Shown: piece after piece, positions 1 to 34,397 of the stretch
Numbering within the stretch: position 1 is the stretch's first letter
Layout: each line of letters begins with the position of its first letter
Assembly: GCA_035342335.1 (NCBI GenBank)
Contig: DAOQWY010000004.1
Span: forward strand, 123,813-187,812
Direction of reading: 5' to 3'
DNA length: 64,000 nucleotides
DNA from: Bacteroidales bacterium
Lineage (GTDB): Bacteria; Bacteroidota; Bacteroidia; Bacteroidales; JAGONC01
Notes under the pieces: model-generated
Databases searched by the model: none
What the model saw: only the letters and a program-made list of their open reading frames with translations
Told to the model about the DNA's origin: nothing
Translations under genes and position numbers: made by a program

Positions 1-1496
1 ATATAGCCCATGATGATATAGGGCGAACCTGCCAAAGTCCAGGTGCCGCTGACTTCATTGTCCCAGATAAGAGTTTCGTCGGATAGCACCGGTTTGAGTT
101 CTCCCAAGGTAATTTCATGAAAAACGCCGTCCCGTCCATTGGTAGTTATATTACCACTCACCCCCTGCCCTTCCATATAGGTTCTCATGGAATGGCCTGC
201 CAGGTCTTTCAGAAATGAAGCGGCCACATGCCGGGCATTGGCCGTGGCATTTGCCGAAATATCGGTAAGGGTTGAAGGACTTGACTGGCTCGACCAGGTG
301 TAATTTATTGTTCCCACATCGCGGGTTCCGTAATTCGTGTCGATCACGTATTCAAGGATAGGCTCACCTGCGATTTCCAAAGTAACTGCATTTCCGTAAT
401 GATGATACCAGTGCGTACTGCCATTCAGCCCCCAGTCAATGCCTTCGATGTTATTGCCAAGCGTGGAAAGTCCGGATTTTATTTTAAGCTGGTCAATGGT
501 ATATCCCTTGTATTCCAGTTGTGCGTTAAGGTTGGGAAATCCTGTTCCTGCACCTGTGAAGTGGCATAGCGCTGCTTCGGGATCCGGGTCAATGTTGTCG
601 TAATCGCGCGAAGTAATATAATACGCCATCCACCAGTTGATACCATTGTATGTAAAGGTATGGCCATACGCCTGGGGCTCGGGACCCGAACCATCGGCAT
701 CCCATGCGACAACGCCTTCATGGTCTGTCACCAGACCGGTAAACGGAAGTATGGGAAAACCCTTTTCGAGGTATCCGTCAATCACATCGAAATATAATCC
801 GTCAATCCTGCTGTTACCCGAAAAAAACACACCTGTTGAAGTCAGTTTACCTACCAGCCTCAGCTCCCAACCATCCATGTCCTGTAAAAAGGCTGCTGCA
901 ACCTCCTGCACTGGAATGGAACTGTTTTGAGAATGATCAAACGGACGGGTAAAACTGGTTTCAAACTGCCAGATGCCAGGATTGGAATGATCATAAGCAG
1001 TGAAGACATTTTTGCAATAAAACAAGATCATTGGTTCGCCATCCAGTTCAATGTAGCAATAACCGTCATATCTGTTCAAATAATGCTTGTTGCCGTCGGT
1101 AAACCAGTCCTCGCCTTCAATATCATTCCCTTCAATAAGCAACCCATGTTTTATTTTAACCTGTCCGGGCAAAAAGCCATAGCTGGACAGCGCTTGCTCA
1201 AAAAGCGGGAATCCGGTCATTCCTGGCAAAAAATGACAAAATGCCGCATTCGGTTCGGGATCGATGTCATCGTAATCCCTTGAAGCGCTATAGTAGCGTG
1301 AGCTGCCATAGCCGAAAGGATGAGGATGGCCTGCAGCGGCAGGTTCAGGGCCTGTGCCGTCGGCATCCCAAACGGCAATGCCTTCGTGATCTGCCGATAA
1401 TCCCTCGAACGGGATCTGGGCATTTGAATACAGAATGGTCAGCACGATCATCGCAATGGCTAACCCTGTTGTTTGAAGTAATGTATTAGTTTTCAT
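1..1496 (-). CDS. Secreted hypothetical protein. The N-terminal 498 codons are visible and the 3' end runs off the left window edge. Absent from the supplied ORF track.
   Basis: Manual reverse-complement translation from the ATG (complement of 1494..1496) is stop-free to base 1. It starts MKTNTLLQTTGLAIAMIVLTILYSNAQ (signal peptide). Two copies follow of a module DHEG[IV]xxWDADGxGPEP...SRDYDxIDPxPxAAxCHF..G.TGFP...KIK.G...GN.IEG.DW. It ends ...NEVSGTWTLAGSPYIIMGY. Track ORFs 479..721, 637..930, 927..1283 and 1217..1423 lie in other frames. Confidence 0.8.
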   Translation of the reverse strand, partial: MKTNTLLQTTGLAIAMIVLTILYSNAQIPFEGLSADHEGIAVWDADGTGPEPAAAGHPHPFGYGSSRYYSASRDYDDIDPEPNAAFCHFLPGMTGFPLFEQALSSYGFLPGQVKIKHGLLIEGNDIEGEDWFTDGNKHYLNRYDGYCYIELDGEPMILFYCKNVFTAYDHSNPGIWQFETSFTRPFDHSQNSSIPVQEVAAAFLQDMDGWELRLVGKLTSTGVFFSGNSRIDGLYFDVIDGYLEKGFPILPFTGLVTDHEGVVAWDADGSGPEPQAYGHTFTYNGINWWMAYYITSRDYDNIDPDPEAALCHFTGAGTGFPNLNAQLEYKGYTIDQLKIKSGLSTLGNNIEGIDWGLNGSTHWYHHYGNAVTLEIAGEPILEYVIDTNYGTRDVGTINYTWSSQSSPSTLTDISANATANARHVAASFLKDLAGHSMRTYMEGQGVSGNITTNGRDGVFHEITLGELKPVLSDETLIWDNEVSGTWTLAGSPYIIMGY

Positions 1497-1620
1497 AAGA
1501 ACCTCCTTTTTTTTGAGACCTTTTCATATGTTAAATTGTTAAACTGCTAATTGCTGATCCTTCGGGCTTCGCCCTCAGGACATGCTGCCAACTGCCTATT
1601 ATCAGGCTGCCAGTATAAAA
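1497..1620 (-). repeat. Upstream cassette copy E1, same family as 18229..18337 and 63002..63160
   Basis: Read on the minus strand it has collinear blocks CAGTTGGCAGC, GTCCTGAGG, GGATCAGCAATTAGCA, then A/T-rich GTTTAACAATTTAACA, about 45 nt before the ATG at 1496. It contains the triloop hairpin GGGC-TTC-GCCC. Confidence 0.55.
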
Positions 1621-1738
1621 TTACTGCACCAAAAAAGTGAAAATGAAACAGATGCATTGTCGCGCGGGAGAGATACAGGACCGGTGGGGATGGATACTTA
1701 AACGCTGGAAGCTAAAGCAAATCCTAAATTCCAAGCAA

Positions 1739-2035
1739 GTGATTGCCCTATTAAGATCCTGATTCATTCCTCCCTCCCTTACCCGTAGGGCATATCGTAT
1801 TGTAGCAGGTAGGTGGCCGAATTCCCCTCCCTTGCCCGTAGGGCAAGCAGTATTGTACCATAATGGCATGAAATGATTCAATACCCCGTAGGGGTTCCAG
1901 ATTTATGTTTATCCCCTACGGGGAATAAAATCATTGGATGATCCCATTGAGCTACAATTCTTTAACCGCTACGCGGTAAAATACAAATAAAGGAGTACAG
2001 ATCAGTGTTTTACTGCATACAGTTTATTTGATAAG
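1739..2035 (+). repeat. Direct repeat DR-1 (297 nt), partner of 3665..3961
   Basis: Manual alignment gives about 15 mismatches in the first 124 nt, and the last 173 nt (1863..2035) are identical to 3789..3961. Hairpins include CCCCGTAGGGG (1884..1894) pairing with CCCCTACGGGG (1913..1923), and ACCGC-TAC-GCGGT (1965..1977). Confidence 0.9.
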
Positions 2036-2049
2036 ATGATATTTCTTCC

Positions 2050-2110
2050 GGGATTTGTTTTTGATTTGGATCTTGTGATTTGTTTGGATTTTGGAAGTTG
2101 GGATTTGGAA
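2050..2110 (+). repeat. GGGATTTG/GGATTTGG word tract following DR-1
   Basis: 2062..2108 matches 3974..4020 with 3 mismatches in 47 nt, so the direct repeat extends past 2035. Confidence 0.8.
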
Positions 2111-2133
2111 TTTTTTTATGTGGTTGTTCGGAT

Positions 2134-3507
2134 TTACCTTGCTAACATATCCGAAGGTGTAAAAACGTGGAATCCGGGAAGCGCTTTACCGGGTCTTTCT
2201 TTAAGAAATAACGCTTTAATGACAGATTTGCTTTCAACAAACGGGAATGCCGCAATTTTACTGTCAATTGAAGAGGCCAGTTCCCCGACAGGTACCTTAT
2301 CCGACCATTTCACTTCCCCGACAAGCAAGCTGCTTCTATCCAGAGATTCTGATAAAAGGTCAATTTCCATCGCTTTTTTATCTGTTCCGGTACCCCACCA
2401 GCGGGAAGCCGGATTAAATTTTTTACCGTCGATGACCATCTCATGTATCATTTTTCTGCATAAATCTTCCCATAAACCCGACAGATATGAATTATACTTC
2501 GCATCAATCCCCTGCCAGACCTCTTCGATCATACCAGATTCGAGCCTGCTTTTATTGGGGATAAGGAAATTGAAGTAGAAATTCAGGAAGGGATCATCAA
2601 TCTTATAAAGGCTTCGTTTGGCGGATCTCCCAGATTCTCCGAAGGGTACTTCACGACGAATGTATCCCTGGTTGATAAGGAATCCAAAAAGACGCGACAG
2701 CTGAGTCACCGGTTTTCCTAATCTTCTGGCAATTTCGGATGGTTTGTGCACACCGGAGCCGATCAGGCTCATTACGGAAAAAGCCTGCACGGATGTCCTC
2801 ATCTCATCGGAAAATAGACGTTCAGGTTCCTCGTAAAGGATACCGTTTTGATCGAGTATGCTTTTTTTTACAGCTTCTGTAAAATCCTTGTATTCTTTCC
2901 TGATTTCCCAGTATCTGGGGACGCCACCCCAGGCACCATATTCCATGACAGCTTCTTCCGGACGGAGTGACAAGAAAGTATGCATCTCTTTTATTCCCAT
3001 GGGTTTTACCCGGATGATTTCATCACATCGTCCATAGAGTGGTGAGCTGCTGTCCAGGACCATACTGTACATCATTTGCTGGGAGGATCCGCAGAGGATC
3101 AGATGAAAATTCCTCTTATCAGATTCTTCTGTTATTTTTTGTAAAATTGAAGGCAACTCCGGGCTGTTTTTAACCAGGTAGGGAAATTCGTCAATACAAA
3201 TAATTGTCCTTGATTTCAGGACAGAATTCAGACTATGGAACAAACTTTCCCAGTCGGGATAGACAGGTCTGGAAAAACCGGGTGCAAGGGCATCCACCTG
3301 TTTTGCAAGCGCCAGGATCTGGAGGGGTGGTTCTCTTAAATCCGCAGAAAAATATAGGGCATGAGGGGGAAGCACCCGATGCAACAATGTCGACTTTCCA
3401 CACCTGCGCCGGCCATAGACAACGATCAGCTGTGGTTTTTCCTTAACGAAAGCATTCTGCAGCCTTTCAATTTCCTTCTCTCTGTTGACAAACATATGAC
3501 TATTCAT
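2134..3507 (-). CDS. AAA-type ATPase of the COG1672 family (archaeal-ATPase-like plus DUF234) with a wHTH and a C-terminal PD-(D/E)xK-like nuclease motif
   Basis: Walker A is YGRRRCGKSTLL and Walker B is IICIDEFPY. The wHTH is SEIARRLGKPVTQLSRLFGFLINQGYI. The DUF234-like stretch is YKIDDPFLNFYFNFL, followed by EIDLL...LVGEVKW. The track start at 3528 is a TTG inside a TATTTTTG -7 box, and the first ATG is at 3507 (MNSHMFVNREKE). Confidence 0.85.
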   Translation of the reverse strand: MNSHMFVNREKEIERLQNAFVKEKPQLIVVYGRRRCGKSTLLHRVLPPHALYFSADLREPPLQILALAKQVDALAPGFSRPVYPDWESLFHSLNSVLKSRTIICIDEFPYLVKNSPELPSILQKITEESDKRNFHLILCGSSQQMMYSMVLDSSSPLYGRCDEIIRVKPMGIKEMHTFLSLRPEEAVMEYGAWGGVPRYWEIRKEYKDFTEAVKKSILDQNGILYEEPERLFSDEMRTSVQAFSVMSLIGSGVHKPSEIARRLGKPVTQLSRLFGFLINQGYIRREVPFGESGRSAKRSLYKIDDPFLNFYFNFLIPNKSRLESGMIEEVWQGIDAKYNSYLSGLWEDLCRKMIHEMVIDGKKFNPASRWWGTGTDKKAMEIDLLSESLDRSSLLVGEVKWSDKVPVGELASSIDSKIAAFPFVESKSVIKALFLKERPGKALPGFHVFTPSDMLAR

Positions 3508-3525
3508 TTTGAAAATTATGTTTGA

Positions 3526-3533
3526 CAAAAATA
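3526..3533 (-). promoter_or_regulatory. Candidate Bacteroidota -7 box (TATTTTTG) for the ATPase gene
   Basis: The complement of CAAAAATA matches the TAnnTTTG consensus and lies about 19 nt upstream of the ATG at 3507. Confidence 0.4.
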
Positions 3534-3597
3534 ATGCTTTTCAAGCATAAATGATGACGTTTCCTGTTATTTTTTCTTACAAAATCCTACAGGGAAT

Positions 3598-3662
3598 AAA
3601 TCCCAAATCCCAAGGTCCAAAATCCAAACAAATCCCAAATTCCAGGATCCAAATTACAAACA
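3598..3662 (-). repeat. Inverted GGGATTTG-type word tract (CCAAATCC on the plus strand) upstream of the ATPase
   Basis: The sequence is AAATCCCAAATCCCAAGGTCCAAAATCCAAACAAATCCCAAATTCCAGGATCCAAATTACAAACA. A short counterpart, CAAATCCTAAATTCCAAG, lies at 1718..1735. Confidence 0.75.
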
Positions 3663-3664
3663 CT

Positions 3665-3961
3665 GTGATTGCCCTATTTAAATCCTGATTCATTCCCCCT
3701 TCCCTTGCCCATAGGGCATATCGTATTGTAGCAGGTAGGTGACCGAATTCCCTTTCCTTGCCCGCAGGGCATATAGTATTGTAGCATCATGGCATGAAAT
3801 GATTCAATACCCCGTAGGGGTTCCAGATTTATGTTTATCCCCTACGGGGAATAAAATCATTGGATGATCCCATTGAGCTACAATTCTTTAACCGCTACGC
3901 GGTAAAATACAAATAAAGGAGTACAGATCAGTGTTTTACTGCATACAGTTTATTTGATAAG
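3665..3961 (+). repeat. Direct repeat DR-2 (297 nt), partner of 1739..2035
   Basis: See DR-1. The core 3789..3961 is identical to 1863..2035. Confidence 0.9.
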
Positions 3962-4058
3962 GTGATTTGTTTGTGATTTGGATCTTGTGATATGTTTGGA
4001 ATTTGGATGTTGGGATTTGGGATTTGCCTGGATTATGGTGCCTGGGATTTGGGATTTG
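3962..4058 (+). repeat. GGGATTTG/GGAATTTG word tract following DR-2
   Basis: The sequence is GTGATTTGTTTGTGATTTGGATCTTGTGATATGTTTGGAATTTGGATGTTGGGATTTGGGATTTG...CTGGGATTTGGGATTTG. GC hairpins follow at 4072..4093 and 4107..4123 (CCCCGCA-GAA-TGCGGGG). Confidence 0.8.
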
Positions 4059-4226
4059 CGAAAAGCTTGAAGATCCCGCCTTGCGGTGGGATCTTTGTGG
4101 AGTTTACCCCGCAGAATGCGGGGCTTCGACTTGCTGCTTGAAGCTATTAACCTGCAACATGTACCTTGCAACATGCAACACACGTCATAAAATCAACTTT
4201 CCCGCGTTAATAATCCAAATAAACCC

Positions 4227-4234
4227 TATTTTTG
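4227..4234 (+). promoter_or_regulatory. Candidate -7 box (TATTTTTG) for gap
   Basis: It matches TAnnTTTG and lies about 60 nt upstream of the ATG at 4296. Confidence 0.35.
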
Positions 4235-4295
4235 CACCCGCAAAGTTGTAGAGTGAATTTAATATTAAATAATTGAAAATCAAAATAGTAAGACT

Positions 4296-5300
4296 ATGAA
4301 CAAGATTAAAGTCGGCATCAACGGTTTTGGAAGGATTGGAAGAAACGTAATGAAAATAGCACTCGAGCGCGGCAACATCGAGATCATCGGCATCAATGAC
4401 CTGACCAGCACAAGTGTCCTGGCTCATCTGTTAAAGTACGATTCCACCCAGGGAAAATTCAACGGAACGGTTTCCTTTGATGATACGAATCTTATCATTA
4501 ACGGGGTCAGGATCCCTGTAACGGCCGAAAGAAGCCCGATCAACATCCGCTGGGCCACATCACCGGATGTTGTTGTGGAATCTACCGGTGTGTTCCGCTC
4601 CAAAGAGAGTGCAAAGGGAGGGTACGGCGACCACCTGAAGAACGGTGCAAAGAAAGTGATCCTAACCGTTCCTGCAAAGGACGACATTGACCGCATGATC
4701 GTCATCGGAGTGAACGACAATGACCTGAAAGAGACCGATCAGTGCATTTCCAATGCTTCTTGCACGACGAACTGCCTGGCACCGGTCGCCAAGGTGCTCA
4801 ACGACCGGTTCGGCATCGAAAATGGCTTCATGACAACCATCCATTCCTATACGAATGATCAAGTGATCCTTGACGGACCTCATACCGATCTGCGCCGGGC
4901 GCGCTCCGCTGCCATCTCGCAGATCCCGACCACAACGGGCGCTGCCCGGGCAGTCGGCAAGGTAATCCCTGCCCTCAAGGGAAAACTGGATGGAATGGCT
5001 ATCCGCGTCCCCACCCCTACAGGGTCCGTTGTCGACCTGGTAGTCAACCTGAAGGTGGAAGTGACTAAAGATGAAGTCAACAAGGCGATCAAGGAAGCTG
5101 CCGAAGGCCCGATGAAGGGGATCCTCGAATATACCGAAGACCCGATCGTATCGGTCGATATCATCCATAACCCTCATTCATCGATTTTTGATGCACTGAG
5201 CACCATGGTCATGGGCAAAACGGTCAAGATCCTTTCGTGGTACGACAATGAATGGGGCTACTCGGTGAGGGTCGTCGACCTCATTGAGAGAGCATTTTAA
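4296..5300 (+). CDS. gap: Glyceraldehyde-3-phosphate dehydrogenase, type I
   Basis: 334 aa. It has the NAD-binding motif [12 protein letters not shown] and the catalytic motif [12 protein letters not shown]. Confidence 0.95.
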
Positions 5301-5353: not shown

Positions 5354-7465
5354 ATGTCCTTTTTCTCACGCCGAATCCCGGTAAAAACGCGCTTTTACGT
5401 TCCTATTGTGACCGGTATCATCATTATGGCGATGATCATCACCATCATCACCATCGCGATGGTACGGCGTAATATTTACCGTTCCCTGGAACGTAATCTG
5501 TCGACGGAGGTCCAGACGATCGTTAAAATGTTTGAGCGTGAAAGAGCACTGAAACTGGACAAGGTCCATCGTGACCTGAAAGTCGCGCACGAGTTGTTTT
5601 ACCAGGATTCACTGGTGATAGGACAAGAAACCTTCGAGGTTCCTGTCCTTAATCAGGTTTCCGGCACTCTGCATCAGGCCGGGCTTCAAAAGTGGTACCT
5701 GGCCGGCAAAGAACTTTATCAGAATTACGATTTCATCGATCGTGTTCATTTTCTTACCGATGCGACCGTTACACTTTTTCAGAAGATCGACAGCGGTTTT
5801 GTGAGGATCTCCACCAACGTGTTGAAGGAAGACAGCAGCCGGGCCATCGGGACATTTATTCCCCTGGACTCCAGCGTGGCAGACACGATCAACCGAATGA
5901 AAACTTTTTTCGGGCGTGCCTTTGTCGTGAATGACTGGTATATTACTGCTTATGAACCCATCCTGTCACAAGGGGAAATCGTGGGCATGCTTTATGTCGG
6001 GGATAAGGAAAAAGACCTGGACAAACTACGCGAAGTCCTTCGTGACCTTAAAATCGGGAAATCAGGATTTCCCTTTGTCATGGATGATCAGGGCACCCTG
6101 ATCATTCACCCGGCACTCCAGGGAGAAAAATACGGTGACGATGACCTGTTTGAAAAGATTGCCCGAATGAAGGAAGGACTGATCATCAGCAGGGGTGGTC
6201 CGGGACGGGAGAAGAACATGATCGCCTTTGATTACTATGAGGACTTTAGGTTTTACATTGGCGTAACCCTGCCCGTCAAGGAAGAAACCGCCCAGATCCT
6301 GAACAAGATCATTCTCAATTCCCTGATCCTTTCCCTTATCATCATCCTGGCCTTTTCCATCTTTGTTTATTATCTCACGATTGAAAATGTCAGAAAATTC
6401 CTGGGAGAACTTGAAGTTTCACAGGCTCAGCTTGACAGTACCAAAAGTGCACTGGCTCAGTCGGAACAGCATTTCAAGACCCTGTTCAACAACAGCAGCG
6501 ATGATATTTTTGTACTGGATATGGAGGGAAACTTCCTGGAGGTGAATCAGGTGGCCTGCGATAACCTTGGGTACAGCCCCGAAGAATTCAAACGGATGAA
6601 CTTCAGGGATATCAAGACACCGAAATTCCTGGATAAAGTTGACCGAAACCTGGAAACCATCCGTATGCTTGGCAAATACCGTTATGAGTCGGAGAATGTG
6701 GCAACAAGCGGCAGGGTGATCCCGGTGGAAATGAACAGCAGGATCATTGAATACAGGGGAAAGAAAGTCATCCTGACCATTGCCAGGGATATTACGGAGC
6801 GCAAGGAGGTTGAAGAAAAGATCCTGCGAACGATCATCCAGACCGAAGAGCGGGAGCGAAAACGGTTCGTTGCCGACCTGCACGACGGGCTGGCACCTAT
6901 TCTGTCGACCATCAAGCTTTATACGGATATCCTGAAGAAGGGCAACTTTAAAAAGATCGATAAAGGGGAAGCGATTGCCAACGTGGAAGAGCTGGTGGAC
7001 ATGGCCATCAAGTCAACACGGGAGATCTCCAACAACATCCGGCCTTCGCTGCTACAGGATTTTGGCCTGGCAGCTGCCATCCACGAATTCACCTCCTATG
7101 TCAAGGCAACGCACGCCGTTGACATTGAGGTGAATACACAGCAATACACGATCGATCACCGTGGAATCGAGGAAACCATCCTCTACCAATCCGTTCAGGA
7201 ACTGATCAACAACACCCTGAAGCATTCAAAAGCGGATCATATCAAGATCGACCTGAAGAGCTTCGACAATCAGATCATCCTGTACTACCGCGATAACGGG
7301 ATTGGTTTTGACCTCACTGCGGAACTGAAGAAAAATACCGGATACGGTCTCAACAATATCATCAATAAAATGAAAACCATCAAGGGATCCTGCGATATCA
7401 ACACCGAAGTGGGGAAAGGGATGTTTTTGATCGCCTCGGTAAGGATCCCGGAAAACAATGCCTGA
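5354..7465 (+). CDS. Membrane sensor histidine kinase (Cache-like periplasmic domain, PAS, HisKA_3, HATPase_c)
   Basis: 703 aa with two TM helices flanking a Cache-like domain (FVRISTNVL...NDWYITAYEPI). It has a PAS-like region, the NarX-type H-box FVADLHDGLAPIL, and an ATPase region DNGIGF...GYGLNNI. Confidence 0.9.
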   Translation: MSFFSRRIPVKTRFYVPIVTGIIIMAMIITIITIAMVRRNIYRSLERNLSTEVQTIVKMFERERALKLDKVHRDLKVAHELFYQDSLVIGQETFEVPVLNQVSGTLHQAGLQKWYLAGKELYQNYDFIDRVHFLTDATVTLFQKIDSGFVRISTNVLKEDSSRAIGTFIPLDSSVADTINRMKTFFGRAFVVNDWYITAYEPILSQGEIVGMLYVGDKEKDLDKLREVLRDLKIGKSGFPFVMDDQGTLIIHPALQGEKYGDDDLFEKIARMKEGLIISRGGPGREKNMIAFDYYEDFRFYIGVTLPVKEETAQILNKIILNSLILSLIIILAFSIFVYYLTIENVRKFLGELEVSQAQLDSTKSALAQSEQHFKTLFNNSSDDIFVLDMEGNFLEVNQVACDNLGYSPEEFKRMNFRDIKTPKFLDKVDRNLETIRMLGKYRYESENVATSGRVIPVEMNSRIIEYRGKKVILTIARDITERKEVEEKILRTIIQTEERERKRFVADLHDGLAPILSTIKLYTDILKKGNFKKIDKGEAIANVEELVDMAIKSTREISNNIRPSLLQDFGLAAAIHEFTSYVKATHAVDIEVNTQQYTIDHRGIEETILYQSVQELINNTLKHSKADHIKIDLKSFDNQIILYYRDNGIGFDLTAELKKNTGYGLNNIINKMKTIKGSCDINTEVGKGMFLIASVRIPENNA

Positions 7466-8105
7466 CATGGATATCATCAAAGTCATGATCGTGGATGATC
7501 ACATCATCTTTCGTAAAGGATTGCGGACCATACTCAATGAGATCGATGAACTGAAGGTGGTGGCGGAGGCTTCCAACGGCGTCGAACTGATGGATGCCCT
7601 GAAAAAAATCCAGACCGATGTTATCTTCATGGACATCCGGATGCCCATGATGGATGGGATCGAGGCCACTAAAAAAGTCACTGCGAAATACCCGGATGTC
7701 AAAATAATCGCACTGACCATGTTCGAGGAAGTGAGTTACTTCAACGAGATGATCGAGGCCGGAGCCGCTGGGTTCCTGCTGAAAAAGACCACAACGAAGG
7801 AACTCAAAACGGCCATTGATGCCGTTCTCCGCGACGATACCTACTTTTCTGAGGAATTTATCGCTTCTGCCAGCAAGTATCAGAGGATCAAGCCCAAAGG
7901 ACCCGATGTCAGGCTCTCCGACCGCGAGTTGGAGGTGCTTGAACTGATCTGCAAAGGAAACTCCAATGCAGAGATTGCCAAATTATTAGGGGTCAGCCAG
8001 CGAACCGTGGACGGACACCGTGCCCACCTCTTCGAAAAAACCGGTGCCAGAAATGCCCCCAACCTGGTGCTCTATGCGGTGAAACATGGACTGATCAGGA
8101 CCTGA
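7458..8105 (+). CDS. NarL/LuxR-family response regulator (REC plus GerE HTH)
   Basis: The REC domain has phosphoacceptor context DVIFMDIRMP. The HTH is LSDRELEVLELICKGNSNAEIAKLLGVSQRTVDGHR. The start overlaps the kinase stop by 8 nt. Confidence 0.93.
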   Translation: MPDMDIIKVMIVDDHIIFRKGLRTILNEIDELKVVAEASNGVELMDALKKIQTDVIFMDIRMPMMDGIEATKKVTAKYPDVKIIALTMFEEVSYFNEMIEAGAAGFLLKKTTTKELKTAIDAVLRDDTYFSEEFIASASKYQRIKPKGPDVRLSDRELEVLELICKGNSNAEIAKLLGVSQRTVDGHRAHLFEKTGARNAPNLVLYAVKHGLIRT

Positions 8106-9512: not shown

Positions 9513-11458
9513 TCACTGAAACGATGACTGACGTAAGGCAAATACTGATGGAAAAGCTCCTCAACGGGGAGACGGAACCACATTCTCACTCTTCGGGGGA
9601 TCTGCTTCGGGCATTGCGCCGGGAAACTCTTCTGAAACCGGTGATCTATATTGGATCCGGAACGTGCGGACTGGGTGCGGGCGCGGATAAGACACAGCAG
9701 GCTGTGAACCGTTACCTGGATGAAAAAGGTATTGATGCCGACATTGTTCAGGTTGGTTGTATTGGCATGTGTTCGGCTGAGCCGCTGCTGGATGTCCAGT
9801 TGCCGGGCAGGAACCGTCTTTGCTTCCAGAAGGTCACCGCGGATAAGGTTGTTAGTCTTCTGGATTCCGCTCTCAAGGGGGAGCCTTCCGAGGAAGACAT
9901 CCTGGGGCAGTTTCGCAACGGGCATACCAGCGCATGGGACAGGATTCCCTTTTTGGATGAGCACCCGTTTTTTGCCCGGCAGACACGGATTGTTTTGAAA
10001 AACTGTGGGATCATTGATCCTGTCAGCATCCGGGAATACATTGCCCATGGCGGTTATCAGAGCCTGCTCACGGTTTTGCAGACCTGCACGTCCCTTGATG
10101 TATGCAACAAGGTGGAGATCAGTGGTTTACGTGGACGTGGTGGTGGTGGGTTCCCTACCGGAAAGAAATGGAAGTTTGCCAACCAAACGGAAGCAGATCA
10201 GAAGTATCTGATCTGCAATGCAGATGAGGGAGATCCCGGAGCATTCATGGACAGAGCAGTGATCGAGGGAGACCCTTACCGTTTGATCGAGGGGATGACC
10301 ATTGCAGCCTATGGTATTGGCGCTTCCAAAGGATATGTGTACATCCGTGCCGAGTACCCGCTGGCCATCCAAAGGTTACGCATCGCGATGGATCAGGCCC
10401 GTAGCTATGGATTGCTGGGAAAAGACCTTGCAGGATCGGGATTCGATTTTGACATCACGGTCAAGATGGGGGCCGGTGCTTTTGTCTGCGGGGAAGAAAC
10501 AGCCCTGATGCACAGCATCGAGGGAAAGCGCGGGATGCCGCGTCCCAGGCCTCCTTTTCCGGCTGTCAGTGGCCTTTTTGGCAAACCTACTGTCATCAAT
10601 AATGTGGAAACCCTGGCCAATTTACCGGTCATCTTTGAAAAGGGTGAAGCCTGGTTCAGTTCAATGGGAACGGCCACCAGCAAGGGTACCAAGGTGTTTG
10701 CCCTGTCGGGCAAGATCAGTCGTACAGGTCTTGTGGAGATCCCGATGGGTACTCCGCTGCGGGATATCATCTTCACTATGGCGGGTGGCATACGCAACGG
10801 CAAGAAATTCAAGGCCGTGCAGATCGGAGGCCCCTCCGGCGGCTGCATAACCGAAGCAAACCTGGATATTCAGATCGACTATGAGTCGCTGATCAGGGCA
10901 GGGGCCATGATGGGAAGCGGAGGACTGGTGGTGATGGACGAGGATACCTGCATGGTGGATGTGGCCAAATTCTTCATGGACTTCATCCAGCGCGAAAGCT
11001 GTGGTAAATGTATTCCCTGCCGGGAAGGAACCCGAAGAATGCTGGAGATCCTGGAGAGCATCACTTCCAAACCAGTCAATACAGGAAATCAATCCCTGAC
11101 ACGCTTCAGGGGAATCATTCAACTGGAGAAACTGGCAAAAGTGATCAGGGAAACCTCTTTGTGCGGACTGGGCCAAACGGCTCCCAATCCGGTACTGAGC
11201 ACGCTCCGCTGGTTCAGGGACGAGTATGAATCGCATATCTACGAACGGAAGTGCCCGGCGGGTGTCTGTACGGATCTGAGAACGTTCCGCATCGATGTGG
11301 ACAAATGCACCGGATGTACGGTTTGCGCAAAGAAATGTCCTACCGGTGCCATCATCGGTGCCAGGAAAACAGCGCATTTCATTGTGGAGGAGAAATGCAT
11401 CGGTTGCGGCAGCTGTGAGGAAGCCTGTAAATTCGGTGCTATTTTTATAAGGGAGTAA
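9509..11458 (+). CDS. hydB: [FeFe]-hydrogenase beta subunit, NuoF-like flavoprotein
   Basis: 649 aa. The FMN/NADH site is GRGGGGFPTGKKW and the [4Fe-4S] motif is ESCGKCIPCREG. It has an N-terminal thioredoxin-like domain and C-terminal ferredoxin motifs CTGCTVCAKKCP and CIGCGSCEEAC. It has an ATGA overlap with hydC. Confidence 0.92.
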   Translation: MITETMTDVRQILMEKLLNGETEPHSHSSGDLLRALRRETLLKPVIYIGSGTCGLGAGADKTQQAVNRYLDEKGIDADIVQVGCIGMCSAEPLLDVQLPGRNRLCFQKVTADKVVSLLDSALKGEPSEEDILGQFRNGHTSAWDRIPFLDEHPFFARQTRIVLKNCGIIDPVSIREYIAHGGYQSLLTVLQTCTSLDVCNKVEISGLRGRGGGGFPTGKKWKFANQTEADQKYLICNADEGDPGAFMDRAVIEGDPYRLIEGMTIAAYGIGASKGYVYIRAEYPLAIQRLRIAMDQARSYGLLGKDLAGSGFDFDITVKMGAGAFVCGEETALMHSIEGKRGMPRPRPPFPAVSGLFGKPTVINNVETLANLPVIFEKGEAWFSSMGTATSKGTKVFALSGKISRTGLVEIPMGTPLRDIIFTMAGGIRNGKKFKAVQIGGPSGGCITEANLDIQIDYESLIRAGAMMGSGGLVVMDEDTCMVDVAKFFMDFIQRESCGKCIPCREGTRRMLEILESITSKPVNTGNQSLTRFRGIIQLEKLAKVIRETSLCGLGQTAPNPVLSTLRWFRDEYESHIYERKCPAGVCTDLRTFRIDVDKCTGCTVCAKKCPTGAIIGARKTAHFIVEEKCIGCGSCEEACKFGAIFIRE

Positions 11459-11483: not shown

Positions 11484-13208
11484 ATGGATTGTATGATAGA
11501 AGTCAATAACAAGAAGATTGAGGCAACGAAGGGAGAATTACTGATCGATGTCCTTTCAAGGAATGGCATCAGGGTCCCGACGCTCTGCCACATGAAAAAT
11601 TATCTGCCCTCCGGCTCATGCCGGATGTGTGTGGTGGAAAACCTGGCGAATGGGAAACTGATCACCTCCTGTTCCTATCCTGTGGAGGAGGGTATGAAAA
11701 TTCAGACCCACTCCCAGCGGGTGGTCGAATCCCGTAAGGTGATCGTGGAACTCCTGTTGTCAAATCATCCTGATGATTGCCTGTACTGTGTGCGTAACGG
11801 CAAGTGCACCCTGCAGGATCTGGCCGGTGAGCACAATGTGACTGAACGACGGATCAGCGGAAAGAAAAATGATTATCACAAGGATCTATCCAGTGCGAGT
11901 ATTGTCCGCGATCCGGACAAATGCATCCTTTGCGGCAGATGTGTCAGGGTTTGTGAAGAGGTGATGGATGTGTCGGCCATTGATTACATCAACCGCGGAA
12001 GCAGATCCGTCATCGGAACGGCTTTCAACAAGGGACTGAACGTCTCCAGTTGTGTGAACTGCGGGCAGTGCATCCTGGTATGTCCAACCGGAGCCCTTTC
12101 CGAAAGGCCCCATATCAATGAAGTGCAGATGGCTTTGAACGACCGGGATCAGATGGTGATCGTGCAGTACGCGCCTGCGGTAACGGTATCCATTGCCGAA
12201 GAGTTTGGTCTTGAACCGGGCGCCGACCTGAATGGCCTGCTGAATGCAGCCCTTCGGAAGATAGGTTTTGACCGGGTTTTTGATACATCGTTCTCAGCTG
12301 ATTTAACGATCATGGAAGAGTCGGCCGAGTTGATCCATCGCATCCAAAACAACGGTGTTCTGCCTATGATCACCAGTTGCTGTCCGGCCTGGATCAAGTT
12401 TGCGGAGGAATTTGCCCACGACATGCTCCCGAATCTTTCCACGTGCAAATCGCCACAGCAGATGCTGGGAGCCGTCATCAAGAGCTATATCAGCGAAAGG
12501 GAACACAAGGATCCGCACCAGATCTACTCGGTATCGGTGATGCCCTGTGTGGCCAAGAAATTTGAGGCGCAGCGGGAGAACATGACCCACCGGGGCATTA
12601 CGGATGTTGACGCGGTATTGTCGACCCGGGAACTCATCCAGCTGATCCGCCTGTACGGTATTGAAATTGATAAACTTGAACCCCAGACAGCGGATTCTCC
12701 GCTGGGTGTGCGAAGCTCTGCCGGAAAGCTTTTTGGCAACACGGGGGGAGTGATGGAAGCTGCCATTCGTACAGCCTACTTCAAACTTACCGGAAAAGAT
12801 CTGGTCAGTTTCAGGGTCCCTGAAATCAGGGGACTCAAAGGAAGGAAGGAAACGCGTATCCGGATCGGTGACCTGGAGCTGGGGGTGGCTGTGGTGAGTG
12901 GTTTAAAAAATGCCCGCCTGTTGCTGGATGAGATCCGCAACGGCAGAAACGACATTCATTTCATTGAAGTGATGGCCTGTCCGGGTGGGTGTGTGGCCGG
13001 AGGAGGGCAGCGCGTGGGATGCGGAGAATCAGATATTCTGGCCCGAATGCGGACGCTCTATGCCATCGACGATCAGGAAACGATAAAAATGTCGCACAAA
13101 AATCCCGAGGTTATTGAGCTGTACCAGGAATTCCTGGGAGAGCCTCTCGGGCACAAGAGTCATGAATTGCTTCATACAAGCTATATTGAACGTGATGTGA
13201 TGTTGTAG
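11484..13208 (+). CDS. hydA: Catalytic [FeFe]-hydrogenase, CpI-like domain architecture
   Basis: 574 aa. Cluster motifs are CHMKNYLPSGSCRMC, HPDDCLYCVRNGKC, CILCGRCVRVC and CVNCGQCILVCP. H-cluster signatures are ITSCCPAW, VMPCVAKKFE and EVMACPGGCVAGGGQ. Confidence 0.95.
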   Translation: MDCMIEVNNKKIEATKGELLIDVLSRNGIRVPTLCHMKNYLPSGSCRMCVVENLANGKLITSCSYPVEEGMKIQTHSQRVVESRKVIVELLLSNHPDDCLYCVRNGKCTLQDLAGEHNVTERRISGKKNDYHKDLSSASIVRDPDKCILCGRCVRVCEEVMDVSAIDYINRGSRSVIGTAFNKGLNVSSCVNCGQCILVCPTGALSERPHINEVQMALNDRDQMVIVQYAPAVTVSIAEEFGLEPGADLNGLLNAALRKIGFDRVFDTSFSADLTIMEESAELIHRIQNNGVLPMITSCCPAWIKFAEEFAHDMLPNLSTCKSPQQMLGAVIKSYISEREHKDPHQIYSVSVMPCVAKKFEAQRENMTHRGITDVDAVLSTRELIQLIRLYGIEIDKLEPQTADSPLGVRSSAGKLFGNTGGVMEAAIRTAYFKLTGKDLVSFRVPEIRGLKGRKETRIRIGDLELGVAVVSGLKNARLLLDEIRNGRNDIHFIEVMACPGGCVAGGGQRVGCGESDILARMRTLYAIDDQETIKMSHKNPEVIELYQEFLGEPLGHKSHELLHTSYIERDVML

Positions 13209-34324: not shown

Positions 34325-34397
34325 TTGTCCGACCAGGGCTCGAACCTGGACTCTTCTGAACCAAAATCAGACGTGTTGCCAATTACACCATCGGACA
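34325..34397 (-). tRNA. tRNA-Gln (anticodon UUG), 73 nt, CCA not encoded
   Basis: The cloverleaf was folded by hand. Acceptor TGTCCGA/TCGGACA (U1-A72), D arm GTGT-AATTGGCA-ACAC, anticodon arm TCTGA-TTTTGGT-TCAGA, T arm CCAGG-TTCGAGC-CCTGG, discriminator A. Confidence 0.9.

Follow-up and report, generated by a model that had tools for sequence, protein, structure and literature searches.

The 64,000-nt window analysed here (positions 123,813 to 187,812 of the forward strand of contig DAOQWY010000004.1, Bacteroidales assembly GCA_035342335.1) carries near its left end two copies of an intergenic repeat that bracket a gene for a DUF234 AAA ATPase, and downstream of the second copy lies the gene for glyceraldehyde-3-phosphate dehydrogenase (GAPDH; 4296–5300). 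An earlier note on this DNA had singled out a 173-nt core, identical in both copies, as a candidate noncoding RNA or protein-binding module. Based on comparison with further assemblies and genomes, we consider it probable that this core is a recently homogenised stretch of a duplicated intergenic segment of about 400 nt, and that its hairpins are a DNA repeat of the GTAG-tagged repetitive extragenic palindromic (REP) type, organised like bacterial interspersed mosaic elements (BIMEs) and REP doublets forming hairpins (REPINs).

The repeat pair itself is real. Positions 1863–2035 and 3789–3961 agree at 173 of 173 sites, with differing bases immediately outside (A at 1862 against C at 3788; A at 2036 against G at 3962), and the adjoining 124 nt, given previously as about 88% identical, came to 109/124 (87.9%) when recomputed. 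As the extent of the repeat unit, however, 173 nt is too small, since 394 nt align at 90% identity (1721–2113 against 3647–4025). No open reading frame (ORF) is common to the two copies, as the earlier note had said. The parts of the two copies are as follows.

1779–1805, plus strand: extra half-module of copy 1, with CCC-GTA-GGG (1782–1790) and then the box GTATTGTAG (GTAG at 1802–1805), laid out as in half-modules of the family
1831–1858, plus strand: left outer mini-hairpin CTTGCCC-GTA-GGGCAAG (1831–1847) and left box GTATTGTAC (1850–1858), blocks that are invariant in subfamily B1
1863–2035, no strand assigned: identical tract of copy 1, matching copy 2 in this assembly only
1884–1923, no strand assigned: central REP hairpin of the "double-foot" form, CCCC-GTAG-GGG...CCC-CTAC-GGGG, its stem a perfect inverted repeat of 11 bp and its loop 18 nt long
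1952–1977, minus strand: mirrored half, with right box CTACAAT (1952–1958) and right mini-hairpin ACCGC-TAC-GCGGT (1965–1977)
1978–2035, no strand assigned: locus-specific tail of 57–58 nt, inside the duplication and the identical tract and outside the family module
3705–3904, no strand assigned: hairpin mosaic of copy 2, with extra half-module CCC-ATA-GGG (3708–3716), left hairpin TGCCC-GCA-GGGCA (3759–3771), left box GTATTGTAG (3776–3784), central hairpin (3810–3849), right box (3878–3884) and right hairpin (3891–3903)
3789–3961, no strand assigned: identical tract of copy 2, invariant across all four assemblies compared and the apparent donor allele

The structured unit is one mosaic module of about 147 nt (1832–1978, with its second copy at 3758–3904), in which an outer C(GNA)G mini-hairpin, a TTGTAG box, a spacer of about 27 nt and the central hairpin are followed by their mirror image on the other strand; read on the minus strand, the right half gives ACCGC-GTA-GCGGT and then ..TTGTAG. 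The stems described previously stand where they had been placed: CCCCGTAGGGG (1884–1894) is the exact reverse complement of CCCCTACGGGG (1913–1923), AATGATT (1872–1878) pairs with AATCATT (1929–1935) in a long-range extension that is private to this element among family modules, and the ACCGC-TAC-GCGGT hairpin, ACCGCTACGCGGT, was found at 1965–1977. Both triloop substitutions between the copies were likewise recovered (GTA to ATA, 1782–1790 against 3708–3716; GTA to GCA, 1835–1843 against 3761–3769), and the left box is degenerate in copy 1 relative to its copy 2 counterpart. The left and right spacers of this element score 14–15/28 for mutual complementarity. That the core is densely structured was borne out by folding, which beat shuffled sequences on the plus strand (z = -4.4) and on the minus strand (z = -3.6).

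To trace how the identity arose, we retrieved the same locus from independent metagenome assemblies through the exact GAPDH protein sequence and compared the window with three of them, L001 and L003, which are of the same strain, and L002, a 99.5% relative (L numbers denote comparison loci throughout). Of 15,000 positions compared, two (1959 and 1987) are all that separate the window from L001 and L003; both are inside the core of copy 1, and at both the window has the copy 2 base. L002 shows these differences again, plus a third at 2018. In L001, L002 and L003 the core of copy 1 differs by 2–3 nt from that of copy 2; the ancestral copy 1 had A at position 1959, T at 1987 and, in L002 only, A at 2018, and the copy 2 core is unchanged in all four assemblies. 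Perfect identity is a property of this assembly, not of the locus. In the ancestral state, the core had diverged at 2 of 173 positions against 23 of 142 in the left part of the repeat (Fisher p = 6e-7). The duplication, with differences between its copies, is present in assemblies from the Joint Genome Institute and the European Nucleotide Archive. Three contigs assembled from short reads all break within the identical tract, exactly 30 nt before its right edge, which is how a genuine genomic repeat behaves in such assemblies and thus indicates that the duplication is real. The left limit of the tract falls within the left spacer, midway through the module, and its right limit lies in locus-specific sequence 57 nt beyond the right hairpin; the left hairpins of the module itself are outside the tract, in the 88% region. 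Because the edges of the tract ignore those of the module, they point to a gene-conversion tract or an assembly collapse and not to selection. Most likely, copy 1 was homogenised to copy 2; very recent gene conversion, which the earlier note had offered as an alternative, is the best explanation of the perfect identity, but graph collapse or polishing in the course of assembly is an equally viable route to it.

The hairpin module is far from confined to this locus. A pattern scan over one genome per species (CCCCGTAGGGG-N(8-30)-CCCCTACGGGG) matched the central stem at no fewer than 120 species-genome loci, against roughly 1.6 expected from a uniform-sequence estimate, the matches coming from many phyla and often several per genome or contig. 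With a form of the pattern specific to Bacteroidota, 48 loci were found in metagenomes. We recovered 171 modules from Bacteroidota, Acidobacteriota, Planctomycetota and other phyla, with a recurring layout: a 5-bp outer mini-hairpin with a G-N-A or G-N-N-A loop, an RTAG box 8–10 nt on (variants include TTGTAG and CAATAG), a spacer, the central hairpin and the mirror image. In the flavour found in Acidobacteriota and Planctomycetota, one more canonical REP hairpin is present, and its GTAG foot forms the box. The mosaic is polar, as a hairpin whose stem has 5 bp or more and whose loop is a G-N-A triloop occurs on the centre-facing strand in 178 of 329 half-modules and on the opposite strand in 13, compared with a mean of 1.8 (maximum 6) in dinucleotide shuffles and 1 of 223 in DNA 1.5 kb away from the modules. 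An RTAG box follows 8–10 nt after 133 of these 178 mini-hairpins. Outer stems covary, with 82 cells changed on both sides against 24.8 in shuffles (none of 500 shuffles reached 82), and the closing C-G pair is kept in 48 of 50.

Subfamily B1, which holds the window element, is represented at L128, L141, L150, L151, L152, L171, L173 and L174, and its invariant blocks are TTGCCC-GTA-GGGCA, AGTATTGTAG, the central hairpin, CTACAATACT and ACCGC-TAC-GCGGT. Among ten B1 modules of 147–159 nt, the hairpins and boxes are invariant and the spacers are constant in length but not in sequence or pairing, so that three local hairpins alone are retained in the consensus fold. Sequence after the right hairpin in the other B1 members is unrelated to the tail at 1978–2035. 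Another Bacteroidota genome from a digester or activated sludge (L139, at 991–1036 and 1789–1834; L170 and L174, both from contig UOWG01000089) likewise carries a pair of B1-type modules, some 800 nt from each other, that have one half in common; the other half of one copy is replaced by a poly-pyrimidine tract (...CCCTTCCCCCTTGCC...) resembling one that precedes the mini-hairpins of the window. At L150 (739–890) and L152, the B1 modules are flanked by inverted copies of a different palindrome, CCGACGGGTAAACCCGTCGG, which indicates that several palindromic repeat families co-occur.

Where enough flanking sequence was available, 95 of 104 modules were intergenic, and the 93 sites classified included 27 with convergent, 23 with divergent (copy 2 of the window among them) and 39 with co-directional flanking genes, an arrangement that is close to random and not terminator-like. 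The suggestion of a DNA hairpin array or protein-binding module under selection is supported at the level of the family, although the unit is the module of about 147 nt and not the 173-nt tract. Triloops of the C(GNA)G type are classic extra-stable DNA mini-hairpins, and the combination of invariant hairpins, fixed spacing and free spacers suggests protein recognition of extruded or single-stranded DNA, the form in which the hairpins probably function. We disfavour the idea that the whole module forms one long hairpin, spacer complementarity being modest (above the cross-module 95th percentile in 51 of 161 modules).

That the core or the whole module is a structured noncoding or cis-regulatory RNA (for example a small RNA, an untranslated-region element or a terminator), a reading that takes in the first one offered for the core, is very unlikely. 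It can draw on the folding of the core below shuffles on both strands, on the retention of the hairpins across many genomes, and on precedent, given that REPs of other bacteria, once transcribed, can have effects as RNA (Di Nocera et al. 2013, PMC3733652). However, the only Rfam match in the whole window at the gathering threshold was a tRNA (34325–34397), and at E <= 10 the best and sole sub-threshold match within 1500–4300 was mir-9080, a eukaryotic microRNA model, at 26.6 bits against a gathering score of 100, a match that reflects the long hairpin only; the Infernal check that had been proposed found no relevant family. Nor did covariation among the B1 homologues favour an RNA, 1 of 21 pairs showing a double change and the covariation term being -0.18 kcal/mol, and the spacers are neither conserved nor consistently paired. 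The signal resides on both DNA strands (the 178 against 13 above), a symmetry that a single transcript does not need: the left half shows its G-N-A loops on the top strand and the right half shows them on the bottom strand, so one transcript would carry, on one side, U-N-C loops that it has no reason to keep. Modules show no orientation preference relative to flanking genes, which are near-random in arrangement, divergent at 23 of 93 sites including copy 2, and scans of the region for sigma-70 promoters and terminators gave counts equal to the shuffle level. Finally, the module is missing from the region upstream of GAPDH in sister species, where the promoter is conserved. A false noncoding RNA candidate is thus removed from the window.

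The central hairpin instead matches a described class of REP. Subclass 2.4 of the TnpA_REP proteins, or REP-associated tyrosine transposases (RAYTs), has been reported in Cyanobacteria, Bacteroidetes and other phyla. Its REPs are long, with a stem base of three G-C pairs; some of them are "double foot" forms of the type GT[AG]G...C[TC]AC, and REP copies have also inserted into the transposase gene without disturbing its frame (Quentin et al. 2018, PMC6006769). The window hairpin has both hallmarks: GTAG (1888–1891) and CTAC (1916–1919) lie within the 11-bp inverted repeat, and GGG(G) at 1891–1894 pairs with (C)CCC at 1913–1916. Entries in the table of that study include GTAGGGGTAGCT..AGCTACCCCTAC (code FtafA01, which we read as the Bacteroidetes genus Fluviicola), GTAGGGGTTTAAC.. 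(CyspB01, read as Cyanothece), GTAGGGGCGAAA..TTTCGCCCCTAC (species code read as Caldilinea) and GTAGGGGCGACC..GGTCGCCCCTAC (read as Chloroflexus). The likeness to these REPs of subclass 2.4 (RAYT group 4 of Bertels) lies in the order GTAG + GGG ... CCC + CTAC, and the first 7–13 nt of the entries beginning GTAGGGGTAGCT and GTAGGGGTTTAAC are common to the window hairpin. In contrast to them, the double foot of the window is extended by CCCC/GGGG and embedded in a fixed 147-nt mosaic with additional mini-hairpins and boxes, and strings specific to the composite were missing from the PMC6006769 table. We also rejected an assignment of type-A modules to the "atypical structures" of class 3 Y1 proteins, as no matching strings occur in the supplementary table of the same study.

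In the BIMEs of Escherichia coli, to which host proteins (IHF, gyrase and Pol I) bind, different types of REP alternate in orientation and are joined by conserved motifs. The window family is likewise a mosaic: its inverted REP-type hairpins are linked by conserved motifs, and mini-hairpin, RTAG box and central hairpin follow one another in fixed order and at fixed spacing. As with BIMEs and Pseudomonas REPINs (Bertels & Rainey 2011, PMC3116915), modules occur singly or in tandem arrays (L128, L151, L171 and L149), are intergenic, and serve as a substrate for local recombination. The window family differs from both in that it occurs in other phyla with other sequences, combines three types of hairpin in each half, always in one order, and carries its GTAG inside C(GNA)G triloops; whereas REPINs are single long hairpins, its modules mostly appear not to be, the inverted arrangement being present but the spacer score of the window element 14–15/28 and complementary spacers limited to 51/161. 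A survey of GTAG-tagged REPs, which located them in Proteobacteria, Cyanobacteria, Chloroflexi and the Planctomycetes–Verrucomicrobia–Chlamydiae superphylum and reported none in Bacteroidetes, described dimers with spacers of 20–100 bp and some families that are nested, lying inside longer palindromes (Di Nocera et al. 2013, PMC3733652). The window elements resemble that superfamily in their GTAG-bearing stem-loops and head–head or tail–tail dimers, and its nested families in that modules sit within inverted low-complexity arms, but the tag of the surveyed REPs is unpaired and at one end of the stem. Searches of the literature found no description of the composite module in Bacteroidales and, for the motif string CCCGTAGGG, returned primers and guide RNAs only; the composite architecture appears to be uncatalogued.

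A Y1-transposase end combines a hairpin with a cleavage or guide site close by, and we take the hairpin with a conserved tetranucleotide at a fixed distance of about 9 nt to resemble the subterminal hairpin ends of IS200/IS605 elements and of their derivatives without ORFs (palindrome-associated transposable elements, PATEs), as a lead only. Unlike those elements, the module has no tnpA or tnpB between its halves, and the halves are mirror images and not distinct left and right ends. It is possible, though we lean against it, that the module of about 150 nt is an uncatalogued cross-phylum element of single-stranded DNA hairpins in which mini-hairpin and box act as "ends" for a RAYT of the 2.4 type or another HuH enzyme; if so, it would be a REPIN-like system outside Proteobacteria, possibly tied to inverted 7-mer microsatellite arms.

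Direct pairing of such hairpins with RAYT-like genes was found at three loci, two of them in Bacteroidales. At L078 (Dehalococcoidia) the arrangement is that of a REPtron, with a central-type hairpin on both flanks of the Y1 ORF and inside it, and the Bacteroidales Y1 genes P0212 and P0221 (loci L180 and L184) each have a double-foot hairpin in frame inside the ORF. A search for homologues yielded 7,986 relatives, among them one annotated RayT and the two Bacteroidales genes. For the genome of the window, the RAYT link is predicted from motif identity. Under the REP reading that we prefer, the hairpins would extrude in single-stranded DNA, where both strands would present the same GTAG-bearing structures; a HuH-Y1 enzyme of the RAYT/TnpA_REP subclass 2.4 may recognise them, and an enzyme of this type may spread or maintain the modules in intergenic DNA. 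The two nearby copies, bracketing an acquired DUF234 ATPase gene, would recombine with each other, and such recombination would have erased the private variants of copy 1.

Several observations weigh against this preferred reading. The window contains two copies of the repeat only, and no further copies or solo half-modules were detected in its 64 kb by a half-module scan that missed the plus-strand halves of the known copies. Regular-expression and tblastn searches of the window and the fetched loci found no Y1 transposase gene in the window or beside modules of the Bacteroidota type, the only Y1 genes recovered in this way being at L078 and at L080 (Methylococcales, 5.8 kb from its hairpin). 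Both Bacteroidales RAYT-like genes examined lie inside restriction-modification operons and not among composite modules. A canonical REP has its GTAG unpaired, at the hairpin foot, whereas in the window the motif is paired in the central hairpin and placed in the loops of the mini-hairpins. Hairpins used for covariation were pre-filtered for at least four Watson–Crick pairs, which makes the percentage paired and the lack of G.T pairs partly circular. The low divergence of the ancestral core (2/173) requires either an older conversion event or some selection, of which older homogenisation is likely, and gene conversion and assembly artefact are equally viable, fitting the allele data alike.

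The RAYT-like genes just mentioned occupy 4001–4552 (L180) and 4001–4675 (L184), in operons for type I restriction-modification, and in L180–L183 the gene ends 4 nt upstream of hsdR. This Bacteroidales Y1 protein may be a domesticated HuH enzyme in a defence context.

We think it unlikely that the hairpins are inert relics, with a segmental duplication made when the ATPase was acquired and no present mobility or function. Such a history would suit the two solitary copies, the lineage-specific nature of the whole block from first repeat through ATPase to second repeat, and the tolerance in copy 2 of loop substitutions such as GTA to ATA. Yet blocks and spacing are strongly conserved across unrelated loci and phyla, hence the family is maintained, and homologues of the ATPase elsewhere are not flanked by duplications.

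Around the modules lie arrays with a period of about 7 nt, which were found in the window as follows.

1716–1736, no strand assigned: left-arm remnant of copy 1, about 20 nt of (AAATCCC)n type, aligning with the inner end of the left arm of copy 2, with 2 mismatches to the arm pattern
2051–2116, plus strand: right arm of copy 1, (GGGATTT)n type
3595–3662, minus strand: left arm of copy 2, (AAATCCC)n type, in inverse orientation to the two right arms
3962–4058, plus strand: right (GGGATTT)n arm of copy 2

Inverted arms of 65 nt (3598–3662 and 3993–4057), 85% complementary to each other, enclose copy 2, which together with them folds at z = -10.7. This architecture could be taken as a classical miniature inverted-repeat transposable element (MITE), in which an arm–hairpins–arm unit of about 460 nt would have inserted twice independently, the arms serving as terminal inverted repeats (TIRs) for a DDE transposase. 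Members of the family in other phyla also sit between inverted low-complexity arrays, which speaks in its favour. Nonetheless, sister genomes have (AAATCCC)n arms with no hairpin module in several gaps between genes, among them the orthologous site upstream of GAPDH in L178, and the arms are therefore a feature separate from the hairpins. Arm sequences are wholly different between family members while the hairpins stay conserved, so no conserved TIRs are seen; copy 1 has a left remnant of 20 nt only; no target-site duplication was apparent by eye (...cagggaat / arm ... arm / cgaaaagc, no direct repeat); and the 64 kb hold no other copy of the unit. We regard a MITE as quite improbable. That copy 2 is an invertible promoter (inverton), flipping by means of its arms between the divergent ATPase and GAPDH genes, is hardly credible. 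Inverted repeats do flank a segment of about 330 nt between two divergent genes, but a single orientation was found in all four independent assemblies and in L134, copy 1 has no left arm, the segment does not include the GAPDH promoter shared with sister species, and other family members have unrelated arms in every gene context.

Arrays of this period are common in the intergenic DNA of this Bacteroidales lineage, as (GGGATTT)n or (AACATGC)n. We recorded them in the window at 2051–2116, 3595–3662, 3962–4058 and 4149–4180, in L178 at 5750–5840 and 9924–9997, in L176 at 7667–7706 and 12759–12814, and in L179 at 1294–1344, 3532–3586 and 7817–7886. In other phyla, modules lie between other inverted 7-mer arrays (GTCCTGA in L013, TTGTCAT in L027, GTCTCAT in L125 and TTTTCCC in L128), which raises the question of why they are so often embedded between inverted arms of short tandem repeats.

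At this locus the module is accessory, as comparison with related species demonstrates. Two further features give the context.

2134–3528, minus strand: gene for an AAA ATPase with Pfam matches to ATPase_2 and DUF234, between the two copies; accessory
4167–4291, plus strand: GAPDH promoter-proximal region, context and not part of the element, 88% identical over 125 nt to L176 and L177

Four sister-species loci, in which the histidine kinase is 81–83% identical, are syntenic in their downstream genes, and upstream of GAPDH the proximal stretch of about 125 nt (window 4167–4291) is alone conserved; both the hairpin module and the DUF234 ATPase are missing from the orthologous site in all four. 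Within the conserved stretch, TATTTTTG is presumably a Bacteroidetes-type -7 box, judged against the TAnnTTTG consensus. Two more GC-rich hairpins occupy 4072–4124, between the right arm of copy 2 and the GAPDH promoter, the first terminator-like (GATCCCGCC-TTGC-GGTGGGATC, then TTTGTGG) and the second CCCCGCA-GAA-TGCGGGG, and they are not conserved in the sister species.

The ATPase gene has no close orthologue; its nearest homologues are 60–69% identical and scattered over phyla in unrelated contexts without flanking repeats, having been found in Bacteroidales, Acidobacteriota, Aminicenantes and Desulfonatronum, mostly on contigs of 1.4–5 kb. A mobile cassette composed of ATPase and repeats was considered and rejected, five homologue contexts (L185, L187, L188, L189 and L190) being free of modules and of flanking direct or inverted repeats; the gene is thus not a REP-bounded cassette. 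What does travel with it is a box of about 40 nt upstream (...GAAAARCATTATYTTTGTYAWRCATAAT..., window about 3515–3545, minus strand), probably its promoter or operator. The left edge of the window (1–1496, minus strand) encodes the N-terminal part, 498 residues without a Pfam match, of a large secreted protein that is internally repetitive (676–727 resembles 1342–1393); the full-length protein in L001 (930 aa) has Beta_helix and Por_Secre_tail domains, the latter of the type IX secretion system (T9SS).

As a member of a widespread family of palindromic repeats, the element is largely ordinary, and its locus is a site at which assemblies of this Bacteroidales population break or homogenise. To our knowledge, the biology of REPs and RAYTs has been worked out almost entirely in Proteobacteria. 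The polar hairpin mosaic described here spans Bacteroidota to Acidobacteriota and Planctomycetota, with a foot like that of subclass 2.4 REPs, and the two strands of the 147-nt module together with candidate enzymes such as P0212 and P0221 offer concrete material for work on the role of RAYTs outside Proteobacteria.

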